Below the pieces are notes generated by a model that searched no databases, was not told the origin of the DNA, and saw only the letters and a program-made list of their open reading frames with translations. Shown here piece after piece: positions 23,445 to 48,078 of a stretch of 50,116 nucleotides of DNA. This DNA comes from Saprospiraceae bacterium (GTDB lineage: Bacteria > Bacteroidota > Bacteroidia > Chitinophagales > Saprospiraceae): the NCBI GenBank assembly GCA_022841345.1, contig JALHRR010000008.1, forward strand, positions 96,994 to 147,109, in the 5' to 3' direction. The position numbers and the translations under genes were made by a program. Position 1 is the first letter of the stretch, and the number at the start of each line of letters is the position of its first letter.

Positions 23445-23850
23445 TTAATCCGCGTCTATAAAACAATCGGCTGCTTTTCCGGCTGTTTTGAATTCTAAAT
23501 TCTGCCTTCTAACTTCTCAAATCTCCCTTTCTTCGATGGTCGTCCCCAAAGCTTTGGGGATGACTTCGATCCAATATTTCATGAATTTGTAATTCATTTA
23601 CGACTAATCCACTTCAACAAACAAATCGGCTGCTTTCCGGCTGTTCCAAATCTGAAAACTGAAACCTGAAATCTGAAATCTCCTATATAACACTTTTGCA
23701 GAACATTGATATTCAATGATTTAAAAAATTCTAAATTCTACCTTCTAAATTCTAAATTTCAGGCCCCGCCGTGTTATCCTTCATCGAATGGTCCCCAAAG
23801 CTTTGGGGACGGGGACTGAAATCTGAAATCAGGACACTGGGAGTGAATGA
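23445..23850. repeat. cluster of modular intergenic repeats (GTCCCCAAAGCTTTGGGGA palindrome, CATGAATTTGTAATTCAT palindrome, CGGCTGCTTT(T)CCGGCTGTT core, CTGAAATCTGAAATC microsatellite)
   Basis: Two copies of the TCCCCAAAGCTTTGGGGA palindrome, at about 23548 and about 23793, plus the same sub-modules found at 37.9-38.1 kb and 47.5-48.1 kb. Confidence 0.75.
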
Positions 23851-28984: not shown

Positions 28985-30124
28985 ATGTCAGACATCAAAT
29001 TTTCTCCTGAAGAACTCTCCCGATACAGCCGGCATATCATCATTCCGGAATTTAATCTGGAAGGCCAGAAAAAGTTGAAGGCAGCTAAAGTTCTGGTAAT
29101 CGGAAGCGGGGGGCTGGGAAGTCCTTTATTGCTTTATTTGGCAGCAGCCGGCGTTGGAACTATCGGAATTGTTGACTTTGATACTATCGATGACAGCAAC
29201 TTGCAAAGGCAGATTCTCTTCACAACAGATGATGTGGGAAAATTAAAAGCAAGCACTGCAGCGGAACGGATCAAAGCATTGAATCCATTCATACAGGTGA
29301 ATGTGCACAACACACATTTAACAAGTCAAAACGCTCTGGAAATCATCAAAGACTACGATGTCGTAGCAGATGGAACTGATAATTTTCCGACAAGATATTT
29401 GGTTAATGACGCTTGTGTTTTGCTGGATAAGGTAAATGTATATGCCTCCATATATCGGTTTGAAGGGCAATTGTCCGTTTTCAATCTTCCGCTCCCGGAT
29501 GGCAGGAGAGGGCCGAACTATCGGGACTTATTTCCTGAACCGCCACCTCCGGGATTAGTGCCCAGTTGTGCAGAGGGAGGAGTTTTGGGAGTGCTTCCGG
29601 GAATACTGGGCTCACTTCAGGCTGCGGAGGTCATCAAAGTAATCAGCAAAGTGGGTGAGCCATTGAGTGGAAAATTATTCACAATAGATGTGGCAGATTT
29701 TCAAACCCGAACTTTGAAAATTCACAAGCAGGAGAGTACCAAAATTGAGAAACTAATAGATTATGAATTATTCTGTGGACTAAAAAATGAAAATATGAGC
29801 AGCGAAGTAAAAGAAATAACGGTTGGACAACTGGCAGAATGGATTGAATCAGGCAAAGATTTTCAGTTGATCGATGTCAGAGAACCCCATGAATATGAGA
29901 TTGCGGAGATAGGCGGATTACTCATCCCATTGGCGCAAGTAATAGAAAATGCAGACAAAATATCGCAGGAAAAGCCGGTGGTCATCCACTGCAGAAGTGG
30001 TGTAAGAAGTGCAAAGGCGATCAGAGAATTGCAGGAATTGCATGGATGGGATCATCTGTACAATCTGAAAGGCGGCATTCTTGCCTGGGCTGATGAGATT
30101 GATCAGCTGGTTACGAAATATTGA
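28985..30124 (+). CDS. MoeZ-type E1: ThiF/MoeB adenylyltransferase fused to a C-terminal rhodanese domain
   Basis: Nucleotide-binding GSGGLGSP motif and two CxxC-like pairs in the E1 domain; C-terminal rhodanese with the active-site loop IHCRSGVRS; start taken at MSDIKFSPEEL (28985), downstream of the cysO stop. Confidence 0.85.
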   Translation: MSDIKFSPEELSRYSRHIIIPEFNLEGQKKLKAAKVLVIGSGGLGSPLLLYLAAAGVGTIGIVDFDTIDDSNLQRQILFTTDDVGKLKASTAAERIKALNPFIQVNVHNTHLTSQNALEIIKDYDVVADGTDNFPTRYLVNDACVLLDKVNVYASIYRFEGQLSVFNLPLPDGRRGPNYRDLFPEPPPPGLVPSCAEGGVLGVLPGILGSLQAAEVIKVISKVGEPLSGKLFTIDVADFQTRTLKIHKQESTKIEKLIDYELFCGLKNENMSSEVKEITVGQLAEWIESGKDFQLIDVREPHEYEIAEIGGLLIPLAQVIENADKISQEKPVVIHCRSGVRSAKAIRELQELHGWDHLYNLKGGILAWADEIDQLVTKY

Positions 30125-30160
30125 ATAATGTAAGTTGACAATAATTAACAAGTAAATATA

Positions 30161-30176
30161 ACCCCGAACGGGGTTT
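30161..30176 (+). terminator. weak hairpin (CCCCGAACGGGG + TTT) after moeZ
   Basis: Short GC stem and short T-run; may mark the operon end. Confidence 0.3.
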
Positions 30177-30254
30177 ACCAATCGTTAGCCCCGGATGAAA
30201 ATCAGGGTTCAATAAATAACAGCATCTGTTTTGGCGGCATTTTTGCCCGATGCA

Positions 30255-30292
30255 AAAATGACATGTCCCCAAAGCTTTGGTGGATGACAAAA
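30255..30292. repeat. partial copy of the GTCCCCAAAGCTTTGG palindromic repeat
   Basis: ACATGTCCCCAAAGCTTTGGTGGATGAC matches the repeat core. Confidence 0.5.
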
Positions 30293-30567
30293 CAAAGTTG
30301 ATGTAAGGAAAGAGTTTGTTCAAAGAAACTAATCCGTTAGGGTCGGAGTAGATAAGTATTTTTTATAAAGTTATGTTGATCTGTGAATTTTTGGTAGAAG
30401 GAGTTCTTCAATGGAAGGGCTCCTTTTTAAGAAGGCAAGAATGGGTTAAGGTTGATTAGAATTAAAAGGTTTAAGCCAAGCTAAATAGAAAGCATTTTTC
30501 ATAAATAACTGAAGATGTTTTGTAACAATAAATAATGTTTCTATATTTGGAAACCCATTGCAAGAAT

Positions 30568-30945
30568 ATGGCAAATATGGAAAAACCTATTGAAGTAATA
30601 TTCCTGAAACAGGCAGAAGAATTTACAGAGTCTATTGAAGAAAATCCCAAAAAGAAACTATTTCAGGCAATCCGAAAAACCAAAGAACGATTATTCGGAC
30701 AATGGTTTACTAAATTGAAAAGTAGTGACGGTATATTTGAGTTTCGAGTGGATGACAGTGGAAAATTTTATCGGCTTTTTGCATTTTGGGATACAGAAGA
30801 AGACGAAGAGACCTTGGTTGTGGCTACTCATGGCCTAATCAAAAAGACCAATAAAACACCACAATCGGAAATTCGGAAAGCAGAGCAGATAAAACGGGAC
30901 TACTTCGAAGAAAAGAAAAATGATAAAAAGAATAAATCAAAGTAA
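30568..30945 (+). CDS. type II toxin, RelE/ParE superfamily (HigB-like / phage Gp49-like addiction-module killer)
   Basis: The motif series IFEFRVDDSGKFYRLFAFWDTEE…LVVATHGLIKKTNKTPQSEIRKAEQIKRDY is characteristic of the Gp49/HigB-type toxin family, and an HTH antitoxin lies immediately downstream; start at MANMEKP. Confidence 0.7.
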   Translation: MANMEKPIEVIFLKQAEEFTESIEENPKKKLFQAIRKTKERLFGQWFTKLKSSDGIFEFRVDDSGKFYRLFAFWDTEEDEETLVVATHGLIKKTNKTPQSEIRKAEQIKRDYFEEKKNDKKNKSK

Positions 30946-30951
30946 ATAGCA

Positions 30952-31275
30952 ATGGCAACAAAAAAATATAAAACATTAGGTGAACTGGAAGATAGATTTT
31001 TCGGTGAACGTGGCACTTCTGTGAGAGAACAATATGAATTTGAACTCAGCATGGAGATATTGGGAGAAAAACTCAAGCAAATCCGGAAAGAAAAGCAATT
31101 GACCCAGGATGAGTTGGGGAAATTAATAGGAGTTCAAAAAGCCCAGATTTCAAAACTGGAGAACGGAGCAAGCAGTGCGACAGTTTCGACCATTTTGAAA
31201 GTGTTCAAAGCATTAAATGCCAAAGTGAAATTCCAGATTGAGATAGAAGATGGATACCAATTGGCCGTTTCATGA
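30952..31275 (+). CDS. HigA-like antitoxin, XRE-family HTH protein
   Basis: 107 aa with an HTH_3 motif (LTQDELGKLIGVQKAQISKLENG); starts 7 nt after the toxin. Confidence 0.75.
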   Translation: MATKKYKTLGELEDRFFGERGTSVREQYEFELSMEILGEKLKQIRKEKQLTQDELGKLIGVQKAQISKLENGASSATVSTILKVFKALNAKVKFQIEIEDGYQLAVS

Positions 31276-31353
31276 GTAAGGAAGTAAGCAAGTAATATCT
31301 TAACAAGCAATTCGAATGTAAATTGGGAATCGCGAATACTAAATGACAAAATT

Positions 31354-31661
31354 ATGAGCAAATTGAAAGATAAGAACTTGATGACACTTGAGGAGTTCAT
31401 AGTAAAAAACTACGGCAAAAATGGGATAAAACAGCGTGACGAATTAGAAGCAGGTTATGAAGCATTCAAAATCGGGGCGTTGATCCACGACCTCGTATCG
31501 ACATGGGGATGACACAAGAACAACTTGCACAAAAAGTGGGAACAACCAAATCTTACATTTCTAAAATCGAGAACGATATAAAAGAAGCACGCATTTCGAC
31601 CCTTCAAAAAATCATTGAACTTGGGTTTGGTGGGCGACTTGAATTGAATATAAAACTCTGA
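31354..31661 (+). pseudogene. second HigA-like XRE HTH gene interrupted by a 1-nt frameshift (or sequencing error)
   Basis: Frame 1 gives MSKLKDKNLMTLEEFIVKNYGKNGIKQRDELEAGYEAFKIGALIHDLVSTWG*. A shift near 31492 continues it as …MGMTQEQLAQKVGTTKSYISKIENDIKEARISTLQKIIELGFGGRLELNIKL*, and the joined product is a paralog of the 30952 antitoxin. Confidence 0.5.
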
Positions 31662-31756
31662 TGCGGTCGGCTTGAATAAAACCTTCTGTAGCGACATTTA
31701 CAGGTAAGCAGATAATAGTAAAGCGTTCGCATATTCAATCCACTTGAAAATATTCT

Positions 31757-31823
31757 CTTGCGGTGAAAAAATCAAATATTCACCGCAATTATGCGGTAAA
31801 TAAATTGTATATTTGCCGCATAG
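31757..31823 (+). promoter_or_regulatory. two operator-like inverted repeats upstream of the Fic gene
   Basis: TTGCGGTGAA–12 nt–TTCACCGCAA, then TATGCGGTAAAT–10 nt–ATTTGCCGCATA, ending 14 nt before the Fic ATG. Confidence 0.5.
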
Positions 31824-31836
31824 TTGATTTTGAACC

Positions 31837-32940
31837 ATGGCAAAATACATTTACGAACATAAAAACTGGCCAGACTTTACCTGGGATGATAAAGTCATCA
31901 ATTCGGTATTTGGTGAAGTTCGCTTAATGCAGGGCAAAATCATTGGACAAATGAACGCTCTTGGGTTTTCTGCTAAAGAGGAAGCGACACTGAACGCTTT
32001 GACCTTAGACATCGTCAAATCATCTGAAATAGAAGGCGAATTGCTCAACTATGATCAGGTACGTTCATCCATTGCAAGACGCCTAGGAATCAACACTGCA
32101 GGGCTTGTACCGGGTAGCCGGCACATAGAAGGCATTGTAGAAATGATGCTGGATGCTACTCAACGCTACAAATTACCTATAACCGAAAAACGTTTGTGTG
32201 GTTGGCACGCAGCACTTTTTCCCACAGGATATAGCGGGCCTTACAAGATAGAAGTGGGTAGATATCGTACAGGTGAAATGCAGGTAGTTTCCGGAGCCAT
32301 GGGTAAAGAAAAAGTACATTACGAAGCAGTAAAACCTGCACTTGTAAAAGCGGAAATGGACAAATTAATAAATTGGTTCAACAATGACACTACACTTGAT
32401 CCTGTGCTAAAAGCTGCCATCGCTCACTTTTGGTTTATCATCATCCACCCCTTTGATGACGGAAACGGCCGGATTGCCAGGGCTATAAGCGATATGTTGC
32501 TTGCCCGTTCCGAAAATAGTGGCGAACGATTTTACAGTATGTCTAACCAAATTTTAGCAGAACGCAAACGCTATTACGAAATATTGCAAAAAGTACAACA
32601 CAGCTCAGGCGACATTACCGGATGGATCGAATGGTTTTTACATTGCCTGAAAAACGCAATACTTGCCACCGAACAAACGACACAAAAAATATTGCGTAAA
32701 GCTGAATTTTGGAAGCGGCATGAACAGACATCCATCAACGAACGACAGCGCATTATGCTCAACAAACTTTTTGACGGATTTGAAGGGAAATTGCAAACCT
32801 CCAAATGGGCAAAAATCACCAAAACCTCTACTGATACCGCATTACGGGATATAAAAGACCTGATAGAAAAAGGTATTTTACAACAAACAGACGAAGGTGG
32901 GCGAAGCGTTAATTATGAATTGACAGACTTTAAACGTTAG
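31837..32940 (+). CDS. Fic-family protein (class II, AMPylation-type) with C-terminal winged-helix domain
   Basis: Complete Fic motif HPFDDGNGRIARA; N-terminal inhibitory-helix motif SSEIEG ([ST]xxxE[GN]) upstream of the core. Confidence 0.88.
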   Translation: MAKYIYEHKNWPDFTWDDKVINSVFGEVRLMQGKIIGQMNALGFSAKEEATLNALTLDIVKSSEIEGELLNYDQVRSSIARRLGINTAGLVPGSRHIEGIVEMMLDATQRYKLPITEKRLCGWHAALFPTGYSGPYKIEVGRYRTGEMQVVSGAMGKEKVHYEAVKPALVKAEMDKLINWFNNDTTLDPVLKAAIAHFWFIIIHPFDDGNGRIARAISDMLLARSENSGERFYSMSNQILAERKRYYEILQKVQHSSGDITGWIEWFLHCLKNAILATEQTTQKILRKAEFWKRHEQTSINERQRIMLNKLFDGFEGKLQTSKWAKITKTSTDTALRDIKDLIEKGILQQTDEGGRSVNYELTDFKR

Positions 32941-33239
32941 TAATCATGAAAAATCAAAACTTCAGATTCCAAACCAATTAGCACTTTTAACGCATCATAT
33001 ATTAAAACTCAGTCGTATCTGGTAGATAGCTTGGGAAGTATTCCGCTTCAATCAATCATCTTATAGCACCAGAGCAATGAAAACATTAATCATCACTTCT
33101 ATACTTATTCTTCTTTCCTTTGGTGGTAATGTCGTTGACTTGGAGTTTTTTACAGAAATGAATAATTGATATAAACAATGGAATACTGAAAAAATAAGTG
33201 CAGAAGATAGATGTTTTTCCCCATTTTTAAAATCTAAAA

Positions 33240-33653
33240 TTGAACCAGAATAGGAAATATTATTACTTTCCAGGATTAATAAGTTTGGTCCTAATTCCCC
33301 TCATGTGTATTTGGTTTATTTACACTAATATTGGCTTTATGCAAGAGAGAGTTATTGAGTTCAATTTGTCAAGGAGAGGACTACCGGAGAGAAATTATGA
33401 AAAGTTTGTTGTTGATAGTGATTCATCAAAAACGAACCAACAATTAGATTCTGTAAGGCAAAGAATGAAATCCATATTGGAAAAAAATGACACAATAAAT
33501 GGAGTCAATCTCAACTTTTCAAGTTCAGCCAGCTATAATTCATTTATAAAATCTTTAGATATGATTTCAGAAAATGATTATAAATATTGGGCAGTTGAAG
33601 CAAACAATATTTGGATACTAGACCTCCCAAAAAATAAAGGAAAAATATCCTGA
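33240..33653 (+). CDS. hypothetical membrane-anchored protein
   Basis: 137-aa ORF with a single N-terminal TM helix in a very AT-rich region; no recognisable domain. Confidence 0.35.
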   Translation: MNQNRKYYYFPGLISLVLIPLMCIWFIYTNIGFMQERVIEFNLSRRGLPERNYEKFVVDSDSSKTNQQLDSVRQRMKSILEKNDTINGVNLNFSSSASYNSFIKSLDMISENDYKYWAVEANNIWILDLPKNKGKIS

Positions 33654-34116
33654 AATAGAAAATAAATTTTTTTCCTGTGGAACGGGAAGGTTTAATACAG
33701 AGCCTGAAATTAGTTTGAAGGATTTTATTCTATTAGAAGTGAGTATATACAGGGAGCATTGTTTTGTTCTTTTAGGCTACGAGATGTTGTTAATAATTTC
33801 AATATGGAAAATGATAAGAAATGCTTCCAATATTTTATAGTGTCAGTACCAGATGATTCGCTAGTAGGACATTATTCAACTTTCGAAATGCATCGCTGTA
33901 ATCCCAAATTTGAAATTTAACGCATTACTTAAAACTTTCGTAGTGTGAGCAAATTCAATTGAGCTATAGTAAAATCATAACTATGCCATAAGCTCATTCA
34001 ATGTTAATCTGATTCCCCAAACCCCCGTTTCACAAATTTCCCAGCCATAATTAGTGATAAACAACATATCCGCTTATATTTGGCTGGTTCAATTCCAATC
34101 CAAATAAAGTACAGAC

Positions 34117-35712
34117 ATGACACTTACTACGCTCGATCTGGTGATTTTTATCAGCTACATCATTGCGATGATGTCCATTGGTCTTTTAATGGCCCGAAGC
34201 AAGAAGACGGAGAATTCTGAAGATTATTTTCTTGCCGGTAAAGAGCTCCCCTGGTGGGCGGTGGGTGGCTCATTGATTGCATCCAATATCTCCGCAGAAC
34301 AGATGATTGGTATGGCAGGATCCGGGTTTGTGATCGGGATGGCTATTTCATCTTATGAGCTGATGGCAGCTGCGACATTGCTGGTGGTGGCCAAGTTTTT
34401 TCTTCCCGCATTTGTCAAAAATAAAATCACAACCATGCCTCAGTTTGTCGAGCGCAGGTTCGATGGTCGCGTCCGGACAGGGCTGGCAGTGTTCTGGGTG
34501 ATGCTTTTCATATTTGTAAACATTACTTCTTTGTTTTATTTGGGTGGTCTGGCTATTTCAAAAATCATGGATGTTCCATTGACTTTTGCTATTGTCGGTC
34601 TTGCCATTTATTCAGCTTCATTCTCCATTTTCGGTGGCTTAAGAGTTGTGGTTTGGACGGATGTGATTCAGGTGATCGTACTGGTTCTAGGAGGGACAAT
34701 GGCATCTTATATGGCGCTCAATGCGCTCAGCGGAGGAGAGGGTGTCATGGCAGGAATGCAGGAACTGTTCCAGAGAGCGCCGGAAAAATTCAACATGATC
34801 TTTGAAAAGGACGATACCTATGTGGACATTCAGACAGGAAAAACGGAATCTTCCTATGCCTTGCTTCCCGGTATTGCGGTACTGATAGGCGGTATGTGGA
34901 TTGCCAATTTATACTATTGGGGGATCAATCAATACATTATTCAAAGAGCATTAGCGGCCAAGAGTATTCAGGAAGCACAAAAGGGATTGGTATTTGCTGC
35001 ATTTATAAAAGTTTTTATGCCATTCATTGTGGTACTTCCGGGTATTGTGGCATTTGTCATGCAGGCAGATATTCAAAAAGCTGATGAAGCTTATCCATGG
35101 ATTCTGAGTAATTATGTGACGAGTGGATTCAGGGGAATTGCATTGGCGGCATTGGTTGCGGCTATCGGTTCATCTATCAGTTCTATGGCCAATAGTGCAT
35201 CGACAATCTATACTTTAGATATCCACAGAGTTTTGATCAGAAGAAATGTGAGTGAAAAATCTCTGGTGAAAATCGGACAAATTACTGCGGGCGCAACTCT
35301 GGTAATCGGTGTATTAATGACTCCATTGCTGGAGAATTTTGGACAAGTATTCCAGTTTATTCAGGAGTATACTGGATTTGTGAGCCCGGGTATTCTGTGC
35401 ATTTTCATGTTTGGTTTGTTCTGGAAACGGACCACTACCAATGCCGCATTAGTTGTACTGACAATCTCCATTCCATTGTCGTTGGCCCTTAAGTTTTTCT
35501 TCCCGGAATGGGCATTCCTGAACAGAATGGGCGTTTCCTTCCTGCTTCTTTCATTCCTTATGATTGTGATTTCATACATGGGTAAGCCACCGTCCGAACA
35601 ACAAAAAGAGATGGTAACTGATCCTTCATATTATAAGACCACCAATAGTTTCAACATCTTAAGCATCATTTTATTAAGTATCCTGGCTGCCATTTATGCT
35701 ATTTTGTGGTAG
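34117..35712 (+). CDS. sodium:solute symporter (SSS) family transporter
   Basis: 531 aa, 13-14 TM helices, SSS-family N-terminal pattern (LAGKELPWWAVGGSLIASNISAEQMIGMAGSG). Confidence 0.85.
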   Translation: MTLTTLDLVIFISYIIAMMSIGLLMARSKKTENSEDYFLAGKELPWWAVGGSLIASNISAEQMIGMAGSGFVIGMAISSYELMAAATLLVVAKFFLPAFVKNKITTMPQFVERRFDGRVRTGLAVFWVMLFIFVNITSLFYLGGLAISKIMDVPLTFAIVGLAIYSASFSIFGGLRVVVWTDVIQVIVLVLGGTMASYMALNALSGGEGVMAGMQELFQRAPEKFNMIFEKDDTYVDIQTGKTESSYALLPGIAVLIGGMWIANLYYWGINQYIIQRALAAKSIQEAQKGLVFAAFIKVFMPFIVVLPGIVAFVMQADIQKADEAYPWILSNYVTSGFRGIALAALVAAIGSSISSMANSASTIYTLDIHRVLIRRNVSEKSLVKIGQITAGATLVIGVLMTPLLENFGQVFQFIQEYTGFVSPGILCIFMFGLFWKRTTTNAALVVLTISIPLSLALKFFFPEWAFLNRMGVSFLLLSFLMIVISYMGKPPSEQQKEMVTDPSYYKTTNSFNILSIILLSILAAIYAILW

Positions 35713-37545: not shown

Positions 37546-37864
37546 AGGCTGTTTAAACTTTCCTTGTTTTCTACGCTGATCTCCACCCAGCGCATGCAAA
37601 GCCGCTCGCCTATTAGTTTCTGTTGTGGATTTAAGAAGTTTTTATCAGAACAAAATCTGGCGAGGGACGAAACTCTCTCCTTAGCTCGACTTCTGTGCCT
37701 GCTTGCTAGAGTAATCAGTGTTGCCTCCTCAGAGCGCTCGAGAGACCGAGCTTCTTCGTCGGTTCGCTTCCTTGTAAAGTACATTTAGTACTTTCCTGCG
37801 TCGCTCATGGAAATTTTAAAAGGCCAAATAAAACCGCCCTCAAAAGCCGATGGTCTAAGTCTGT

Positions 37865-38395
37865 GACTTAGATCCCATAAATCATGAATTTGTAATTCAT
37901 CTACGACACATCCACCTCTTAAAACAAAATGGCTGTTAACTCATCATTCATAACTCCCCCAGCTGTTCACTTAGACCTGATCCTTTATACCTTATGCCTT
38001 CTTTGAAATCTTAATACTCCGATGGTCGTCCCCAAAGCTTTGGGGAGCGACTTCGATCCAATATCTCATGAATTTGCAATTCATCTACGACACATCCACT
38101 TCTACATACCCATCGGCTGTTATTGGCTGTTGCCGGCTGATTACTAAACTTCTAATCTTCTAAACTCCTCGACTAATCTCCCCCATAACTCCCACTGGCT
38201 GTTCACTTATGCCTAATGCCTTACACCTTATTCCAGTAGTTCTCATCTCTCATATCTGGCTGTGTTTCACTCATCATTCACCGCGAGGTTCCGCTTTGCT
38301 TCACTACGAGGTCCTGCGGATAACTCATCATTCATAACTCCGCCCCGTCTGTCATCTCATCTCTTATCTCTCATCTCTAAATACCTCTTCTGAAT
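37865..38395. repeat. two consecutive copies of the modular intergenic repeat (CATGAATTTG(T/C)AATTCATCTACGAC palindrome, GTCCCCAAAGCTTTGGGGA, GGCTGTT…CATAACTC modules)
   Basis: 37870-37990 and 38030-38150 share about 90% identity in the palindrome + ATCATGAATTTG…CATCTACGACACATCCAC segment; heptamer-type units (TCATAACTCC) recur at 37950 and 38330. Confidence 0.75.
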
Positions 38396-47539: not shown

Positions 47540-48078
47540 CCGCGGAAATGAGCGCTGAAGCGGAGAAAAATGCAGGGAAGCGGAGAGAGGGGTGGTAATA
47601 ATCGTAATGTGGAATCAATTTTTTTCGCTCCTCCACAGGAAAGCAAAGATTTGAGATTTCAGTCCCCAAAGCTTTGGGGATCAGTAGTTTCAGATTTCAG
47701 ATTGAACAGCCGAATAGCAGCCGATTTTTTTGTACGGATCAGATATTTCGTAGATGAATTTAAAATTCATGAAATATGGGATCGAAGTTATAAACTTCGA
47801 CCATCGGGGGCCGCGGAAATGAGAGCTGAAGCGGAAGAAAATGCAGGGAAACGGTGGGAATCTAGGTAGTAATTGTATTATTAAAGGAACTTGTTGCTCT
47901 TCAACAGGAAAGCAATGATCAGATTTCAGGTTTCAGTCCTAAAAGCTTTGGGGATCAGATTTCAGATTGAACAGCCGAATAGCAGCCGATTTTTTTGTAT
48001 GGATCGGATATTTCGGAGATGAATTAAAAATTCATGAAATATGGGATCGAAGTTATAAACTTCGACCTTCGGGGACCT
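47540..48078. repeat. tandem duplication (2 × ~270 bp) of a composite palindromic repeat unit
   Basis: Unit 1 spans 47540-47810 and unit 2 spans 47811-48078. Each unit carries CCGCGGAAATGAG(C/A)GCTGAAGCGGA…GTCC(C/T)(C/A)AAAGCTTTGGGGATCAG…GATTGAACAGCCGAATAGCAGCCGATTTTTTTGTA…GATGAATT(T/A)AAAATTCATGAAATATGGGATCGAAGTTATAAACTTCGACC(A/T)TCGGGG. The units are about 90% identical and contain four internal palindromes. Confidence 0.85.

Follow-up and report, generated by a model that had tools for sequence, protein, structure and literature searches.

A probable recombination hotspot between moeZ and an SSS transporter gene in Saprospiraceae, carrying a toxin-antitoxin pair and a Fic unit that most likely represses itself

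The DNA under study, referred to as the window, is the 50-kb stretch of the Saprospiraceae bacterium contig JALHRR010000008.1; its guanine-plus-cytosine (GC) content is about 40%, and its housekeeping genes are closest to those of Saprospiraceae metagenome-assembled genomes (MAGs), with MoeZ at most 72% identical. Between a cysM-JAMM-moaD-moeZ operon that ends at 30124 and the gene for an SSS transporter that starts at 34117 lies an islet of accessory genes, all on one strand: a HigBA-like toxin-antitoxin (TA) pair, the broken gene of a second helix-turn-helix (HTH) antitoxin (HTH2), a class II fic gene preceded by two inverted repeats (IR1 and IR2), and a frameshifted membrane-protein gene (Table 1). 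An earlier note, made from the sequence letters alone, had described the region as an accessory, eroding TA and Fic islet between moeZ and the SSS transporter, and synteny as well as composition support this core reading. The islet can be regarded, with good though not complete confidence, as the cargo of a recombination hotspot, consisting of the HigBA pair, the decayed antitoxin, a Fic unit that most likely represses itself and the membrane-protein pseudogene. The segment 29753-35838 is reproduced with 100% identity in three independent Logan assemblies, the split HTH gene included.

Table 1. Features of the islet and its borders. Positions refer to the window, except in the last row, where they refer to the metagenomic fic locus L087. 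nt, nucleotides; aa, amino acids; ORF, open reading frame; wHTH, winged HTH; TM, transmembrane.
Feature	Position	Strand	Remarks
Left anchor, conserved 107-nt block ending in terminator hairpin GGAGTTCTTCAATGGAAGGGCTCC+T5	30322-30428	+	>=90% identical in L165, L169, L170 and L172
Variable cargo segment (islet proper)	30429-34025		without homology to L165, L169, L170 and L172; only the HTH2 and fic parts common with L164
higB-like toxin gene (Gp49/RelE superfamily), apparently intact	30568-30945	+	PF05973, E 2.6e-13, profile positions 6-88 of 90
higA-like HTH_3 antitoxin gene	30952-31275	+	PF01381, E 4.6e-13; 6 nt after the toxin gene
HTH2, second HTH antitoxin pseudogene, cognate toxin missing	31354-31661	+	two ORFs, frames 1 and 3
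Putative fic operator	31759-31820		two inverted repeats, 4 nt apart
Bacteroidetes-type -7 box TATATTTG	31808-31815	+	inside IR2; one base common with the right half-site; TAnnTTTG scan
Class II Fic gene, DUF4172-Fic-wHTH, 367 aa	31837-32940	+	DUF4172 PF13776, E 3e-33; Fic, E 6e-19
Frameshifted pseudogene, uncharacterised family of ~200 aa with N- and C-terminal TM segments	33240-33840	+	homologue alignment in two frames
Right anchor, conserved promoter/leader of the SSS gene	34026-34116	+	homology resumes at 34014-34032; TATATTTG box at 34075
attC-like copies in L087	658-794, 1271-1404, 1881-2012, 2781-2908, 4757-4890, 6130-6260		

The limits of the islet were read from close relatives, which were found via the 90% cluster of the SSS protein. 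Six genomes with an SSS protein at least 90% identical were compared, namely the window, L164, L165, L169, L170/L171 and L172; both flanks are visible in L165, L169, L170 and L172, and the L164 contig starts inside the cargo and shows the right flank only. In the four relatives with both flanks the left breakpoint is exactly 30428, directly after the terminator hairpin, and in all five relatives homology resumes at the right anchor, about 90 nt upstream of the SSS start. The locus is a core-flanked variable hotspot, with the same flanks and breakpoints around different cargo. The extent given in the earlier note, 30300-34116, has to be narrowed, as homology with the relatives confines the variable part to 30429-34025.

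The cargo differs widely between the relatives. L164 carries a Gp49 toxin gene with an intact 99-aa HTH gene, a Panacea-type TA pair on the opposite strand, fic (94% aa identity), Abi_2 and a leucine-rich-repeat (LRR) protein gene, and L165 has 190- and 290-aa genes of no known family (o190 and o290) together with an opposite-strand HigB_toxin(PF09907)/HTH_3 pair. In L169, the Saprospiraceae MAG GCA_016706365.1, a HigB_toxin/HTH_3 pair is the only cargo (979 nt), L170/L171 has Abi_2 only, and L172 several small uncharacterised genes. Sharing follows a mosaic pattern: Abi_2 is 87% identical between L164 and L170, the HigB_toxin/HTH pair 91-93% identical among L165, L169 and L172, and fic 92.5% identical between the window and L164. 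Synonymous divergence (dS) between the window and L164 is 0.32 for fic and thus below that of the flank genes SSS (0.80), MGMT (0.56) and GT (1.44), as would be expected if the fic module was exchanged more recently. The AT-rich tail of the window islet was searched for leftovers of the relatives' cargo genes (Abi_2, LRR, o190, o290, HigB_toxin), and none was found.

Composition sets the cargo apart as well. The GC content of every cargo is 32-36%, compared with about 40-41% in the flanks; in the window the variable segment has 36.3%, below every other 3.6-kb window of the 50 kb (40.2 +/- 1.5%, minimum 36.9%), and its tail (32941-34116), with 31.4%, is the lowest 1.2-kb stretch. The label 'AT-rich' therefore holds for the islet as a whole and for the tail, but not for fic, which has 41.9%. 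At larger distances the arrangement is lost: the 80 genomes of the GTDB with a MoeZ 62-72% identical keep the four-gene operon, conserve nothing downstream of it and have neither SSS nor fic adjoining, and a genome with an SSS protein at 72% identity has different neighbours. Synteny based on MoeZ in these GTDB genomes is uninformative as a test of the islet at 62-72% identity, and the closer relatives were taken via the SSS cluster instead. The composition and synteny checks proposed in the earlier note thus came out in its favour, with the same flanks and different cargo in five relatives and with moeZ and SSS not neighbours in more distant genomes.

The TA pair at the left end of the islet consists of a predicted RelE-superfamily toxin gene directly upstream of an HTH antitoxin gene on the same strand, which by sequence makes it a predicted type II TA module. 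It shares with HigBA-type systems the toxin-first order, the Gp49/RelE-fold toxin, the HTH_3 antitoxin and the 6-nt gap; it differs in that the antitoxin scores 20 bits against the HigA equivalog cut-off of 47.7 and the toxin has no NCBIfam family match. A TAnnTTTG box found by motif scan at 30542-30549, before higB, lies downstream of an ATG at 30535, and thus the start at 30568 is favoured over that at 30535. This TATATTTG -7 box is flanked by a short GTTTC/GAAAC inverted repeat (30537-30554), a possible candidate for a HigA operator.

HTH2 is split into the ORFs 31354-31512 and 31503-31661, the second of which matches HTH_3 (E 6e-13). Comparison with L164, where the orthologue is intact (99 aa), shows that one nucleotide has been lost near 31487; the three Logan assemblies have exactly this break, so that it is not a one-off assembly error. 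In L164 the orthologue stands directly after its own Gp49 toxin gene; in the window higB and higA lie 78 nt upstream of HTH2 and are 36% and 31% identical to the L164 pair. The simplest reading of this arrangement is that HTH2 is an antitoxin that was orphaned by module replacement, with loss of its toxin, and was then free to decay. All three gene calls of the earlier note, the Gp49/HigB-type toxin, its HTH antitoxin and the second HTH gene with a 1-nt frameshift, are thus confirmed by PF05973, by PF01381 and by the L164 orthologue, respectively, and its view of a decayed antitoxin in an eroding islet is strengthened by the second pseudogene at 33240-33840.

The Fic protein has the motifs of class II. 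The inhibitory motif S62-SEIE66-G67 (32020-32037) is part of the same polypeptide and precedes the Fic core, and the sequence H204-PFDDGNGRIAR215 (32446-32481) fits the Fic motif HxFx(D/E)GNGRxxR; the class II assignment with an inhibitory SSEIEG helix of its own, made in the earlier note, is borne out by these motifs and by the alignment to CbFic2 of Coxiella burnetii (PDB 8CIL; PMC10628234). CbFic2 is the closest solved relative, 47% identical over residues 1-362 (E 2e-102), with the motifs at the same positions (TSAIEG at 62-67, HPFDDGNGRIGR at 205-216; PMC10628234). The alignment extends through residues 304-369 of 8CIL, its wHTH, so that the islet protein has, as judged from its sequence, a DUF4172 domain and a C-terminal wHTH around the Fic domain. 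In CbFic2 the wHTH binds DNA, a DUF4172 helix mediates dimerisation, and the enzyme is switched by DNA binding (PMC10628234); unlike in the case of the islet protein, research on CbFic2 has treated it as a histone AMPylase directed at the host, and no specific DNA site is known for it (PMC10628234).

Two further characterised proteins are more distant. CccR of Yersinia pseudotuberculosis (PDB 7XUX; PMC9755527) has the same DUF4172-Fic-wHTH architecture, and its Fic domain is a growth-arresting AMPylase with FtsZ as target (PMC9755527); however, its sequence match to the islet protein is weak (E 2e-08), and it is an effector of a type VI secretion system, whereas no secretion context is evident at the islet. 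SoFic of Shewanella oneidensis, which AMPylates EF-Tu (bioRxiv 10.64898/2026.07.09.737422), aligns only with its C-terminal half (phmmer E 4e-13). The SoFic defence-system model of PADLOC matches with E 6e-49, but the NCBIfam SoFic equivalog gives 71 bits against a cut-off of 550, and the islet protein is therefore not taken as a SoFic orthologue. In the Fic of L164 (2153-3253) the motif reads HPFDDGYGR, a Tyr replacing the conserved Asn; this copy may be catalytically impaired, or an assembly error may be present.

The Fic family is very large, at least 8000 members, as all 8000 candidates that were scored reach E <= 1e-20; among the best matches listed the identity is 83-100%, and the names come from several Bacteroidota orders. 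Relative to the window copy the median aa identity is 85%, the proportion of synonymous differences (pS) is 0.62 (saturated) and that of nonsynonymous differences (pN) is 0.08, a conservation above that of MoeZ (62-72%) over comparable taxa. In 81 fic loci with 641 neighbouring ORFs only fic itself forms a cluster common across loci. Homologues are found on 446 plasmids, including the Haliscomenobacter plasmid pHALHY03 at 85.5% identity; no match was obtained in phage genomes.

Upstream of fic the two inverted repeats, which the earlier note had called operator-like, were confirmed by a shuffle test and by their conservation. IR1 has the form TGCGGT-N17-ACCGCA (31759-31787) and IR2 the form TGCGGT-N17-GCCGCA (31792-31820), which gives four half-sites (31759-64, 31782-87, 31792-97 and 31815-20) with a spacing of 17/4/17. 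With up to two mismatches allowed, the half-site pattern has four matches in the window against 0.56 expected, none of 100 shuffles reaches four, and within the window the motif occurs only at this place. An alignment of 70 non-redundant fic upstream regions, from loci with different neighbours, shows most half-site columns conserved to 90% or more, and 46 of the 49 regions with the full pattern keep the spacing. L164 is homologous to the window here from 31758 on, right at the first half-site. The -7 box in IR2 coincides with a conserved column block, GTATATTT, in the alignment of the 70 regions, and from the established knowledge of Bacteroidetes promoters we infer a promoter role for TATATTTG. 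The candidate operator is thus a palindromic site over the putative promoter of its own gene, as expected of a DUF4172-Fic-wHTH autoregulator of the CccR/SoFic/CbFic2 type.

The repeats are also found beyond the Bacteroidota lineage of the window. TGCGGN-N17-NCCGCA is located upstream of plasmid homologues with 49-58% identity from Alpha-, Beta- and Gammaproteobacteria and from Hymenobacter (8 of the 11 plasmid homologues examined), and it is absent from homologues that are at most 40% identical (Vibrio, Pantoea, Agrobacterium); the upstream regions of Vibrio and Pantoea have other repeated motifs, noted by eye. The operator therefore accompanies the gene from one phylum to another and differs between protein subfamilies, which makes Fic itself the likely binder. 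As judged from these alignments, the repeats are part of a self-contained fic unit and do not belong to the neighbouring HTH genes, and Fic most likely represses itself by binding to them. There are precedents for such a loop: the CccR dimer binds AGATAATCAT-N26-ATGATAATCT through its C-terminal HTH over its own -35/-10 boxes and represses itself (PMC9755527), and SoFic binds the first 100 bp upstream of its own gene (bioRxiv 10.64898/2026.07.09.737422). The CccR operator is a single unit, in contrast to the two TGCGGT-N17-ACCGCA units of the window. An operator of the latter type is a candidate for the specific site of CbFic2.

In other metagenomic loci fic is often packaged like a cassette. 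Of the 81 loci, about 35 have GTTATAGCCAATGG as the start of the conserved unit, some 115-145 nt before fic, and 37 have its end just after the stop codon, with CCACTGGCTATAAC, the reverse complement of GTTATAGCCAATGG. Around the fic units lie imperfect palindromes of about 130 nt that start with ..TAAC and end with GTTA.., and these were modelled for nhmmer as attC-like sites from 19 examples, hand-built from the same loci that were later searched. The model finds 47 copies in 29 of the 81 loci, at least two copies in 11 loci and six in L087, all on the fic strand except one, and has no match in 80 control moeZ loci. For 24 non-redundant copies RNAalifold predicts a stem of 12 pairs, 10 of which show compensatory changes. 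In the arrays among loci L084-L163 the ORFs between the attC-like repeats are unrelated and lie on the same strand, and fic is one such cassette. An earlier home-made attC scanner based on arm complementarity did not separate fic from control loci and was replaced by the nhmmer model, and a home-made palindrome scan found nothing in the islet. Reading AACGTTAG at the fic 3' end as a fused R' box that continues into a known cassette was also tried, and no significant similarity was found.

The tail of the islet is very AT-rich, as described in the earlier note, but its '137-aa orphan' is the front part of a frameshifted gene from a real family. The ORF 33240-33653 corresponds to the first two thirds of the pseudogene and has 385 homologues at E <= 1e-3 in an exhaustive HMMER search, mostly of 200-225 aa, aligned from residue 3, which confirms both the TTG start and the TM segment at the N-terminus; a word-indexed protein search had returned the ORF itself only, and the ORFan status it implied was overturned. 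The best homologue, P0242, matches the window in two pieces: its residues 3-132 correspond to 33246-33623 in frame 0 (E 8e-31), and its last 53 residues (147-199), with a conserved xCG motif and a hydrophobic segment at the C-terminus, correspond to 33670-33834 in the +1 frame. The two-TM family has no Pfam match. Its best intact homologue (L168, 1218-2958) adjoins a RhuM-family gene between housekeeping genes, a placement that suggests that this family is accessory cargo too.

Several observations concern the flanks. Among close relatives the conservation of the non-coding block 30322-30428 exceeds that of the coding flanks; its predicted fold has two hairpins besides the terminator (z = -2.8), and it may be a candidate small RNA, a 3' untranslated region or a recombination anchor. 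The 'palindromic repeat copy' that the earlier note had placed at 30255 as the left border is a hairpin (30236-30262) of which no second copy was found in the window at up to three mismatches; it lies outside the islet, in an indel-prone part of the conserved flank, and is not a boundary. Downstream of moeZ, some 196 nt rich in hairpins (30126-30321) form an indel that includes it: the window, L165 and L169 have the stretch, with sub-indels, and L170 and L172 lack it. A repeated element of about 70-90 nt with the palindromic core ATGAATTTGTAATTCAT occurs in the window at 23561-23632, 37848-37937, 38049-38121 and 47742-47806, as well as in L165; this is probably the family meant in the earlier note, and it is absent at 30255. 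In L172 (1967-2905) the moaD/moeZ part of the operon is largely deleted, with a 109-aa rhodanese remnant left, so that rearrangements evidently can reach into the left flank. An insertion sequence (IS; HTH_Tnp_1 + rve) is present downstream of MGMT in L170 (9497-10770) and L171 (5859-6892) and absent from the window.

In the explanation proposed here, the hotspot is bounded by the terminator that follows the cysM-JAMM-moaD-moeZ operon and by the SSS promoter. Close relatives keep these two anchors and differ in a mosaic of AT-rich modules (TA pairs, Abi_2, Fic and others), which they most likely swap by homologous recombination via the conserved flanks, following horizontal acquisition. In the window the cargo has three parts: an apparently intact HigB(Gp49)/HigA type II TA pair; a second HigA-like antitoxin that would have lost its own toxin and then decayed by a 1-nt deletion; and a stand-alone class II Fic unit, followed by the frameshifted membrane-protein gene. 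With the fic promoter inside the two inverted repeats, a Fic dimer would most likely bind through its C-terminal wHTH and repress its own transcription, and the intramolecular SSEIEG helix would restrain AMPylation. Loss of either brake would then lead to a growth-arresting or defence-type AMPylase, the toxicity and the target of which are predictions.

It should be noted that several points weigh against this reading. No integrase, tRNA gene, IS, attC-like site or target-site duplication is present in the islet, and the mechanism of exchange is accordingly one that we infer. A search for direct or inverted repeats as islet borders gave matches at chance level only and no flanking direct repeats, the attC-like model has no match in the window or L164 even at E = 10, and an 'empty' site was not found among the relatives, the smallest cargo being 979 nt. 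The relatives are MAGs or metagenome contigs, so that misassembly is possible for any single one of them, and codon constraint could account for part of the lower dS of fic. As to Fic, its binding to the repeats is a prediction for every member of this subfamily, and CbFic2 has a high affinity for random DNA (PMC10628234). In addition, the very strong purifying selection on the family is unusual for a defence gene or a toxin and may point to a housekeeping-like regulatory role.

Among the alternatives, an unlikely one takes the islet for the remains of an integron-type array, or for cassettes inserted at a secondary site: fic and its neighbours would have come in by integrase-mediated attC recombination, and the attC sites would since have eroded. 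Fic lies beside or among the attC-like repeats in the 29 loci named above, with same-strand arrays in 11, the stem of these repeats covaries, the control loci have none, a weak attC-like remnant (E 0.005) follows a cargo gene in L165, and the islet genes share one strand. Integrons have been reported in Bacteroidota (PMC8618304, PMC9668308), and TA and defence genes are abundant among their cassettes (bioRxiv 10.1101/2024.07.02.601686). Nevertheless, the window and L164 are without an attC-like match at the most permissive threshold, the GTTATAGCCAATGG leader and the CCACTGGCTATAAC tail are absent around the window fic, neither the islet ORFs nor the +/-6 kb around each array showed an integron integrase, and the model was built from the very loci it searched. 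The islet thus has neither the attC sites nor, among its ORFs, the integrase of an integron cassette array; the attC-like arrays suggest a source of hotspot cargo, which for the window's own fic copy is speculative. A tRNA-targeted genomic island is not supported either: there is no tRNA gene in the 50 kb and there are no flanking direct repeats; a search of Rfam gave no family match and, at a permissive threshold, a single chance snoRNA-like match (E 0.2), and a domain scan of the islet ORFs found no integrase or recombinase, so that the corresponding statement of the earlier note on integrase and tRNA stands.

It is far less probable still that the inverted repeats are operators for HigA, HTH2 or a host factor, with Fic as their regulated cargo. 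TA antitoxins are DNA-binding repressors, and two HTH genes lie directly upstream of fic on the same strand; but HTH2 is broken, and in L164 an opposite-strand TA pair lies between HTH2 and fic. Moreover, neither HTH gene co-occurs with fic in 80 other loci in which the operator is kept, and on proteobacterial plasmids the motif accompanies fic among unrelated neighbours. Very improbable, too, is an ancestral region from which the relatives differ by differential loss only, without any acquisition. The two pseudogenes do show ongoing decay, and no mobility gene is present; however, the cargos share homology in mosaic blocks only and are all compositionally deviant, the dS of fic is below that of the flanks, its relatives occur on 446 plasmids and beside attC-like repeats, and the genomes with a MoeZ 62-72% identical have no SSS or fic adjoining.

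The islet is an ordinary small accessory/defence hotspot of a known kind. It shares with other core-flanked hotspots the fixed breakpoints, the conserved flanks and the mosaic AT-rich TA/Abi/Fic cargo, and differs from them in its small size (1-6 kb) and in the lack of mobility genes; the defence role of the cargo is putative. It matters mainly for annotation, with two previously unrecognised pseudogenes and boundaries that are now exact. Two aspects add to this: a tandem TGCGGT-N17-ACCGCA candidate DNA site for a large and very conserved Fic subfamily, which is testable, and the cassette-like packaging of the fic unit, often beside or inside attC-like arrays in Bacteroidota, which suggests one route by which such genes reach hotspots.

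A more far-reaching idea, to be treated as tentative and rather doubtful, is that TGCGGN-N17-NCCGCA might be the specific operator of a cross-phylum DUF4172-Fic-wHTH subfamily that includes the CbFic2 branch, and that the unit might be a portable one-gene 'DNA-tethered toxin-regulator'. If this were true, the operator-bound Fic dimer would be a transcriptionally silent, deAMPylating state, and an AMPylating monomer would be set free once the tether is lost, for example because the copy number changes, foreign DNA competes or the element itself disappears. This would explain why the unit spreads alone, on plasmids as well as in the form of a cassette that brings its own promoter and lies next to attC-like repeats, why it is conserved far above MoeZ over the same taxa, and why no partner gene is needed.

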